DNA of 64,000 bases, taken from the NCBI RefSeq assembly GCF_013122565.1, contig NZ_CP053258.1. One strand, 5' to 3'. Shown one piece after another: positions 40,801-43,800 of this stretch. This DNA is from Escherichia coli (lineage in GTDB: Bacteria > Pseudomonadota > Gammaproteobacteria > Enterobacterales > Enterobacteriaceae). Made by a program: the position numbers. Within the stretch, counting starts at the first letter, position 1. Every line of letters starts with the position of its first letter.

Positions 40801-43800
40801 ATTTTCTCTCTGTCTTCTTTTGTCTCCGAACAACTCATATACCATTATCCTGATTAATCTTCGCGTACTCATACGACGTCTTCCCCCTTCAACTATACCC
40901 TATTGAAATGATTTTATTGCTTTTGTTCAGACAACAAAAAAATGCGAGCTCTGACACAACAGTAAAAACCAACCGTTAAAGTATCTCTGTGTTTCCACAC
41001 TCTCCCTTGCTGAGAGGGAATTCTGAGCCCGGTCACTTGAGCTTGATTCACCATCTTTTTGGATTACTGGGAAGTTGTGACATCACATAATCCGCCCACG
41101 CCTGCATCATCGGTATATGCTGATCCAGTAGATCAGTCCGGTGATATGCTGCCTCAACCTTATTTTTCAGCGTGTGGGCAAGCGCCCTTTCCGCCAAATC
41201 CCTGTTCACTACACCAGTCCCTGAATGTTGAACGAAAACCATGTGCTGTTGCCACCCGTCCGGGTATATCACTGATGGCATTCTTTTTACGCAGAAAACT
41301 CGTCAACACCATATCTGAAAGGATCTGCTGCTTTCTGGGAGAAGGAAACACCAGTTCATCATGCAAACCACGTATATTTTCCAGAACGTGAATGGCCTGC
41401 CGGGATAAAGGAATACGATGCTGTATCCTAGCTTTCATTCTTTCTGCTGGTATCGTCCATATCCGCTTATGAAAATCAATTTCAGCCCAGCGCATTCCCC
41501 TGGCTTCGCCCGAACGGGTTGCTGTAAGTATCACCATTAATAACAGTGCTCGGGTAACATTATAAGGTTCATCTGTATACACGCTTGTCGCCACAAACAG
41601 CGGTAATTGCCTCCAGGGCATTGCCGGCTGATGTTCATCACGTCCTCTTGATTGCTGTGGAAGCAAATGTTCAACCACATCAACAGGATTTGCCACACAA
41701 AAACCATGCGCCCAGCCCCACTGCATAACAACATGAATACGCTGTTTAATCCGGCTTGCCGTTTCTGATAAGGTCAACCAGATTGGACGCAGTGTCTCTG
41801 CCACGTCCGCAGCCGTAATCTCATTCAGCGTTTTTGCTCCCAATTGAGGAAACACGTAATTTTCAAGCGTCGACAACCACTGCCTGACATGCTTTGGATT
41901 TTCCCATCCCGGTGACAATTCTGCATGTACACGCATGGCTGCATCGGCAAATGTTGGGATAACAACTTTTTCAGCTTCAGCCTTTTTGATCTCCAGAGGA
42001 TCATCACCTGCAGCAAGTTGCTCTCGCATTATCCGGGCAGTACGTGCAGCTTCGGCAATACTGACCTCAGGGTAAGTTCCCAATCCAGCATTACGCCTTT
42101 TTTGTGTCACCGGACTTACATAACGAAAAACCCATTTACCCCGCCCCTTTACTGAAGAAGGATGAAGGGTCAGCCCTGTAATTCCCCCATGAGGCAATGG
42201 TTTGTCATCAGGTTTGATATGCCTTGCTTTTGTATCAGTCAATACTGCCATACGCTAATTCCTGTTTCTCTAGTATGCCATCCAGTATGCCCTTATTCTC
42301 ACACTTCACTAAGCATACATTAGATAATATCGGACAGAAAAAATTTGTAATGTATTGTTTATAATTAAATTATACAACGCCTCTGGATTAAGTCAGATTT
42401 ATTTCAGGCGGTCCCCCTCACCGCCATATTTAAATAAATATCCTCCGGCATAGCCGGAGGTTTTTCAAATGCGCCTATAAGGCTCTCTTACCAGCCGCGC
42501 CCTAACAGGCGCACACGATCTGACATTTGCATCCAACTTCGTTACTTACGGCCCGTAAACGGGCTGCCCGGATAGGGAATCGATAACTGCTCTCCCATTT
42601 CATCCTCTTCAAGCTGGTGCTTTATGTAATCCTGTATCTTCGCCGTGTTCTTACCCACCGTATCGACGTAATACCCTCTGCACCAGAACTCCCTGTTCCT
42701 GTATTTGAATTTCAAATCCCCAAACTGCTCATAAAGCATCAGACTGCTTTTCCCTTTCAGATATCCCATAAAGCCGGATACGCTCATTTTGGGCGGGATC
42801 TCCACAAGCATATGGATATGATCTGCACAGCATTCAGCTTCAAGAATCCGTACGCTTTTCCACTCACACAGCTTTCTCAAAATACTGCCTATTGCTCTAC
42901 GCTTCTCTCTGTAGAACACTTGTCTTCGGTATTTTGGCGCAAAAACTATGTGATATTTACAGTTCCATCGGGTGTGCGCTAAGCTCTTTTCGTTCCCCAT
43001 TGGGACCCCCTTTTGATTTCTTGTTTGACACTTGCAGTTGCCAGACCGCAAGGTGTTTTAACAAATCAAAAGGGGTTTTAATAACTGGCTCAAAGCTGAA
43101 AGCTTTCCGGAACCCCCAGTCTAGCTGGGGGTTTTCTGTGCACAAGAAGAGCCCGTACGAAAGTACGGGCTTTTTTTTCGTATATTGCACACACCGGGTG
43201 CCCCCGCCCACGTCTGTTAGGGCGAGGGGAAATCGTACACATCAACTGTCTGATTGCTCAGTCAACAATCAAAATGCGCAAGAGAGTACAGAACATATAT
43301 GCGCTATCTGGTCACTTCCTGTAACTTCCTCACTTATTAAAATGCCCCCAACGGAAATACATGTCACATGCCATCATAAAATCGTTATGCCAGAGGAACC
43401 GACAATGGAAAAAATAGTAAATTAAGCACGGTACATAGCAGAGTAAAAAATAGGCTTCAAACCAAATCCGCCATTCCACAAGCGTTGCCAATACCGACAC
43501 CAGCGTAATCCACATCACTTCAATAACCAGCAATATGAATAACCGAAGCCAAAGCGGCTTGGCAAAAAAGGTCGACAACGCATTTTCACTGGAGAAAAAC
43601 AGATCGATTTCCTGCAAAAAAAGCCTGCCCAGAAAAGCGTACCGCTTGGAGAAGCGCAGAAAAAACAGATTAATCGCCAACACTACGCCACAAAGAATGA
43701 GCAATGCAATTATCGATTTAAACGTTAACCACTGCCCCTCTGTCACAAAAGAGTTACTGTTACGCAACGGGCTGATAGTAAGCAGGTTAACAACCGTTGA

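Follow-up and report, generated by a model that had tools for sequence, protein, structure and literature searches.

The integrase gene of a genomic island at the tRNA gene serX was analysed in a 64,000-nucleotide stretch of Escherichia coli DNA (contig NZ_CP053258.1, assembly GCF_013122565.1), referred to here as the window. The gene is, with high confidence, a vertically inherited and irreversible pseudogene of the site-specific integrase of this island, and excision of the island by its own integrase is predicted to be lost. An initial annotation had described an integrase inactivated by frameshift, and this was borne out, since two open reading frames (ORFs) in different frames and an 11-bp deletion relative to intact alleles were found. 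The pseudogene is genuine but ordinary. Its parts are the following:

41048-42251, minus strand: whole integrase pseudogene, assigned to the SpLE1/OI-48 serX/serW group of P4-type tyrosine recombinases.
41196-42251, minus strand: native codons 1-352, covering both DNA-binding domains (arm-binding and, in the centre, core-binding) and the start of the catalytic domain; R246, the probable K273, H337 and R340 are among them.
41196-41202, minus strand: deletion junction with the one remaining GGGATTT copy, placed by alignments and junction coordinates.
41160-41195, minus strand: frameshifted tail GGKGACPHAEK and TAA stop (41160-41162), read from the sequence.
41051-41203, minus strand: native codons R354-W404, out of frame, including H363 (41174-41176) and Y373 (41144-41146), placed by alignment.

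The two minus-strand ORFs were listed at 41160-42251 (363 amino acids) and 41048-41281 (77 amino acids), and their overlap at 41160-41281 was as previously described. This overlap only reflects the position of the first ATG, because the first 26 codons of the 77-residue ORF are an out-of-frame reading of the upstream part; its native part is the last 51 codons (R354-W404), and it contains ALAHTLKNKVEAAYHRTDLLDQ, also quoted as RDLAERALAHTLKNKVEAAYHRTDLLDQ. The 363 N-terminal codons of the initial annotation were exact in ORF length and coordinates, but only 352 of them are native, and the final 11 are frameshifted read-through. When the 11 bases were put back, a single frame of 404 amino acids was obtained, 99% identical to the intact allele of E. 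coli JNE23-001, indicating that the split frames are not due to chance. Pfam matches on the 363-residue ORF were Arm-DNA-bind_3 (PF13356, 1.5e-15), Phage_int_M (PF22022, 1.6e-24) and Phage_integrase (PF00589, 7.3e-16), the last of which spans profile positions 23-145 of 172, so the catalytic domain is cut short.

The alignment to intact relatives proposed with the initial annotation was run, and it showed the indel to be a loss of 11 bp at a pair of 7-bp direct repeats. It is a single gap in the window relative to JNE23-001 (404 amino acids, the closest intact allele), ECCNB20-2 (94% identical) and ECs_1299 of O157 Sakai, and A30 was found with an 80-nt junction query as a fourth intact allele with the 11 bp. 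The window lacks the 11 bp GGGATTTTCGC, which in the alignment of intact alleles are found between two perfect 7-bp direct repeats GGGATTT, the intact sequence being AACA-GGGATTT-TCGC-GGGATTT-GGCGG and that of the window AACA-GGGATTT-GGCGG. The perfect repeat is only present in the JNE23-001-type allele (GGGGTAT/GGGATCT in Sakai, GGGATAT/GGGATTT in ECCNB20-2), and this accounts for the origin of the deletion in such an allele. In a megablast search against 5,426 complete E. coli genomes, many intact relatives were observed with a matched span 10-12 bases longer than the query. The site is not homopolymeric, and the deletion appears to be the footprint of replication slippage or of a microhomology-mediated deletion between short direct repeats. 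Slippage cannot restore the gene because the TCGC spacer is lost, which makes the pseudogene irreversible.

The exact 363-residue sequence, including the frameshifted tail, was present in six contigs from six different sequencing runs. A comparison of three of these contigs with the window, spanning 7,092 bp, showed two to be 100% identical and one to have 8 differences. The identical 11-bp deletion was also observed in the complete genome of E. coli PapRG-06-5 (from a Gambian baboon), and the 33-nt junction string was found in all six contigs and in this genome. With an asymmetric 80-nt junction query the deletion was detected in one of the 5,426 complete genomes (PapRG-06-5), and the alignment stopped exactly at the repeat in 169 others; the 33-nt junction had 0 matches in 100,044 species-representative genomes. 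The divergence between the window and PapRG-06-5 is about 0.4-0.6% in the chromosomal flanks and 0.5% in the island, and the two lineages are judged to be related but non-clonal. The lesion is already known, as PGAP flags the integrase fragments of PapRG-06-5 in RefSeq as 'frameshifted; incomplete'.

The two lineages carry different insertion sequences (IS) at this locus, and that of the window is as follows:

42434-43144, minus strand: complete IS200, 711 bp, lying 7 bp outside the attachment (att) core, between the ycdU terminator and the island (STnc490 at 140.8 bits, Y1_Tnp, alignment to an insertion-free genome).

IS200 was observed at this site in five of the six matching contigs and is absent from PapRG-06-5, JNE23-001 and Sakai; from the alignments, it is inserted in chromosomal DNA and is specific to the lineage of the window. 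PapRG-06-5 has its own IS3-family element in the N-terminal third of int, at about 41918-41923 of the window (PapRG-06-5 segment 41168-42381). The deletion therefore predates both IS insertions, since PapRG-06-5 shares it but has IS3 instead of IS200. Taken across these genomes, the comparison identifies the lesion as real and inherited vertically.

In the protein, the frame breaks after F352 and a stop follows 11 codons later. Catalytic residues were placed by alignment to P4 Int and lambda Int, namely R246 in TATRSGE, H337-x-x-R340 in AHGFRSTFR, the His-II residue H363 in ALAH and the nucleophile Y373 in EAAYHR, and the catalytic lysine is probably K273. Lambda Y342 was not cleanly aligned by MAFFT, and the position of Y373 was taken from the P4 'AAY' alignment together with the conserved motif. 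The catalytic set R...K...HxxR...H/W...Y is incomplete in one frame, with R246 and H337/R340 in the main frame and H363 and Y373 only in the other. DNA cleavage by a tyrosine recombinase requires the tyrosine. Since Y373 (and H363) is out of frame, the gene is catalytically dead, and Int-dependent excision is predicted to be absent. By sequence, the locus is a pseudogene of the tyrosine recombinase family and not a functional member. A PDB sequence search returned structures of the N-terminal and central domains only, and no catalytic-domain template was found. The repaired 404-residue protein differs from the JNE23-001 allele only by D143N, Q144E and R382H. R382H (CGT to CAT, 41117-41119) sits in the out-of-frame part; no intact homologue departs from arginine at this position, PapRG-06-5 retains the CGT codon, and the change fits drift after inactivation.

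The initial annotation had placed the gene in the P4 family, and this agrees with the three-domain architecture and with the full-length similarity to P4 Int (BLASTP, 32% identity, E 1e-49, residues 13-393), together with integration at a tRNA 3' end with a short direct repeat at the far boundary. The repaired protein shares 95% identity with the SpLE1 integrase of Sakai (ECs_1299) over 397 residues and 93-94% with S. flexneri 405-residue (93%) and E. coli 400-residue members, all in one 90% cluster, and it thus lies within the identity of at least 90% that delimits the SRL-PAI/OI-43/OI-48 (SpLE1) integrases of serX-serW islands (PAI, pathogenicity island). NCBIfam PRK09692 scored 186 bits with the intact allele and 128 bits with the truncated ORF, both below the curated cut-off of 434 bits. 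The sequence similarity assigns the gene to the SpLE1/OI-43/48 branch of P4-type integrases, in which the SRL-PAI integrase probably also falls by its att core and sequence.

The island and its boundaries are the following:

11044-42426, no strand: genomic island of 31.4 kb between the att cores, delimited by the 14-bp repeats, with gene content from the PGAP annotation of the 99.5%-identical island of PapRG-06-5.
10956-11043, plus strand: serX, tRNA-Ser(GGA) gene, whose last 14 bp (11030-11043) are the att core.
42413-42426, minus strand: int-proximal att core (ser'X), 14-bp direct repeat TGGCGGTGAGGGGG, 161 bp upstream of the int ATG.

The 3' 14 bp of serX are CCCCCTCACCGCCA (reverse complement TGGCGGTGAGGGGG) and recur once, at 42413-42426, so that the island is 11044-42426, about 31.4 kb. 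The 14-bp core has 2 matches in the window compared with 0.02 expected. OI-43/48 and the SRL PAI have the same 14-bp repeat in a published report (PMC3064760).

From the SRL PAI, OI-43/48 and P4 systems, an intact integrase would bind arm- and core-type sites and recombine the two 14-bp cores with the help of an AlpA-like Rox factor, and the outcome would be excision or integration of the island. In the preferred explanation, slippage or a microhomology-mediated deletion between the GGGATTT repeats (GGGATTT-TCGC-GGGATTT) would have taken out the 11 bp whose loss shifts the frame after F352. The resulting product of 363 amino acids keeps both DNA-binding domains, R246 and H337-x-x-R340 but has neither H363 nor Y373, so that it cannot cleave DNA and the island would be locked at serX without excision or movement by its own integrase. 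The deletion came first, followed by IS200 and R382H in the lineage of the window and by IS3 inside int in the sister lineage PapRG-06-5. Integrase loss is a textbook route to the fixation of tRNA-linked genomic islands in the chromosome, and the locus preserves an ordered record of decay, from a deletion between 7-bp repeats to independent IS200 and IS3 insertions in two sister lineages. This is ordinary island decay whose importance is mostly for annotation; the gene should be annotated as a pseudogene, and resequencing is not needed.

Several points weigh against this explanation. The slippage mechanism is deduced from the structure of the repeats alone, the loss of excision activity is a prediction from the gene sequence, and the evidence for drift after inactivation is one substitution. 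A paralogous intact integrase elsewhere in the genome (e.g., of a serW island, as O157 carries OI-43 and OI-48) could also act in trans on the intact att sites, and the window covers only 64 kb of that genome. Excision of the 31-kb serX island and its fimbrial operon is accordingly not expected in the absence of such a paralogue.

Upstream of the gene, two further features were located between the att core and the int ATG:

42369-42396, minus strand: promoter-like site CTGACT-16-TATAAT, a consensus match not above shuffle expectation, untouched by IS200.
42271-42292, minus strand: tandem GGCATACT motif, candidate arm-type Int-binding sites, 17-41 bp upstream of the int ATG.

Between the core and the ATG the window does not differ from the intact JNE23-001 allele, and for this reason the truncated ORF may still be expressed. 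Copies related to GGCATACT were found at 11098-11120, at the opposite end of the island. Conservation of the motif extends to Sakai, and its layout recalls the arm repeats annotated between the attP core and int of P4. The motif CAGTATGCCA had 8 matches in the window compared with 4.3 expected, and 6 of 100 shuffles reached 8, which is not significant. The tandem motif as arm sites is only a lead, suggested by its position and by its conservation in Sakai.

This unchanged upstream region, with its promoter-like site and tandem candidate arm sites, bears on the possibility that the truncated protein has been kept for a new role as a catalytically dead DNA-binder, acting by repression of its own promoter, by att occupancy or by interference with related integrases. 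The arm- and core-binding domains are intact, and of the five substitutions in codons 1-352 relative to JNE23-001 three are synonymous, but the substitutions are too few for a selection test. The N-terminal part has also been broken by IS3 in the sister lineage, and the allele is rare (one of the complete genomes and six read sets), so that such a role is considered improbable. In one form of it, the dead 363-residue protein may occupy serX/serW att sites and block the excision or entry of related SRL/OI-43/48-type islands, which is very doubtful; if true, the dead integrase would be a form of integrase-derived island immunity or stabilisation.

Retained activity would be expected if programmed ribosomal frameshifting joined the two frames or if the two pieces acted as a split enzyme. 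The stop of the first ORF lies within an A-rich run (GAA AAA TAA), and programmed frameshifting is used by some mobile-element genes, e.g., IS3 transposases. However, in every relative whose gene is intact (the 169 genomes with an alignment break at the repeat among them) the 11 bp are present and the frame is uninterrupted, and even after a shift at the A-run residues 353-363, H363 among them, would be replaced by unrelated sequence. No ribosome-binding site is evident for the 77-residue ORF, which also begins with 26 out-of-frame residues, and the further destruction of the same allele by IS3 in PapRG-06-5 indicates no selection to keep activity. Programmed frameshifting is excluded by the continuous frame of the relatives, the loss of H363 and the IS3 insertion, and both forms of retained activity are highly unlikely.

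Although frameshifts seen in one genome are often errors, a sequencing or assembly artefact with an intact real gene has a negligible probability, and the assembly or homopolymer error considered in the initial annotation is excluded, as the 11-bp deletion lies in non-homopolymeric sequence, eight assemblies are concordant (including the six read-set assemblies from different runs), and the identical junction is present in the complete genome of PapRG-06-5, about 0.5% diverged and with different IS insertions.

The remaining comparisons concern the int-proximal module of the inactivated integrase and its nearest known systems. Apart from int this module is intact and consists of the following:

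35841-37367, minus strand: YfjI/DUF3987 gene of a CP4-57-like int-proximal backbone.
37392-37616, minus strand: intact AlpA/Rox-like gene (Phage_AlpA, E 8.9e-16).
37711-39561, plus strand: ORF of 616 amino acids adjoining int, with a large ORF at the same position in Sakai, JNE23-001 and PapRG-06-5.

The AlpA/Rox-like gene is probably the recombination directionality factor of the island, by analogy with the known systems. The 616-residue ORF is a backbone gene of the island family; it had no family match in Pfam or PADLOC. At its position Sakai has ECs_1300 (605 amino acids, annotated 'membrane protein'), which is alike by position and probably conserved.

The SpLE1/OI-43/48 islands (integrases Sakai ECs_1299 and EDL933 Z1559) share with the window the arrangement of ycdU, 14-bp core, int reading into the island and serX at the far end, the order in Sakai being ycdU, terminator, TTAAATA, 14-bp core and int as in the window, as well as the 14-bp direct repeat TGGCGGTGAGGGGG and the upstream tandem GGCATAC motif. 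In contrast to the window gene with its 11-bp deletion, the O157 gene is intact (400 amino acids), and the O157 OI-43/48 islands excise at measurable frequency by site-specific recombination between the 14-bp repeats (PMC3064760). The cargo also differs, being a 31-kb fimbrial/toxin-antitoxin/IS-remnant island in the window and an 86-kb ter/ure/iha island in SpLE1.

The SRL PAI of S. flexneri 2a has the same att core and serX/serW target, while its cargo is different and the copy in the window is inactive. The S. flexneri 405-residue integrase is probably that of the SRL island, and its length fits the EDL933 gene being 15 bp shorter than SRL int, as reported in the literature. The AlpA-like gene lies two genes from int in the window, as in the SRL PAI, where orf1 is int and orf3 is rox (PMC6980539). 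Two other reports state that SRL int is required for precise excision (PMC7545054) and that the SRL-PAI Rox is AlpA-like and stimulates excision (PMC2704930).

P4 Int and CP4-57 IntA have the same three-domain architecture, and the HGFR, LxH and AAY motifs are shared with P4 Int. In P4 and in the window alike, some 150-160 bp separate the att core from the start of int (about 150 bp for the attP core of P4), and repeats lie in this interval; CP4-57 has the same AlpA and YfjI/DUF3987 neighbours, and the P4 excisionase is Vis/ORF88. The tRNA target is serX here but leuX or ssrA in P4/CP4-57, the identity is only about 32%, and int in the window adjoins a displaced tRNA fragment instead of an intact tRNA gene.

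Unlike in SpLE1 (187 bp), int in the window is followed by a 1.5-kb AT-rich spacer. This spacer (39562-41047), between the 616-residue ORF and the 3' end of int, is ORF-poor, with 30-38% GC and a strongly negative GC skew; it was present in 3 of 5,426 complete E. coli genomes at 97.8-98.1% identity, where it is unannotated, and it is less conserved than the rest of the island. At its position the SpLE1 of Sakai has only 187 bp. Rfam and PADLOC searches of the spacer and neighbouring ORFs returned nothing credible.

The order in the window is csg operon, ycdZYX, ghrA (minus strand), serX (plus strand), island, IS200, ycdU (minus strand) and an O157 OI-47-like cluster. Its ghrA-ycdY segment reaches 99.1% identity with E. 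coli genomes at most, in keeping with the species. Judged from the PGAP annotation of the PapRG-06-5 copy, the remainder of the island is a decayed mosaic, with a CbtA/YeeU toxin-antitoxin pair, antirestriction, JAB and DUF932 genes (CP4-44-like module), several IS66, ISL3, IS3 and IS256 remnants and frameshifted genes. The main intact cargo is a chaperone-usher fimbrial operon (23993-29190, plus strand) encoding a major subunit, a chaperone, an 867-residue usher and a 382-residue tip/adhesin-like protein, with IS66 remnants and a truncated ydeO-like regulator on its flanks. A GTPase-family protein of the CP4-44-like module (18767-19678, minus strand) gave a weak PADLOC LeoBC match (E 6e-9, partial coverage).

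In JNE23-001 (segment 5800-6000, about 42430 of the window), an extra partial serX fused to an RtT-like element and a second ycdU terminator were observed between ycdU and int; these look like the scar of a second, tandem element and are not present in the window. Immediately upstream of ycdU, the gene order and sizes of a long operon at 44313-63659 (minus strand) match ECs_1282-ECs_1297 of O157 Sakai (OI-47), with genes for acyl carrier protein, ketosynthase, reductase and dehydratase, an ABC transporter and a two-partner-secretion hemagglutinin/activator pair.

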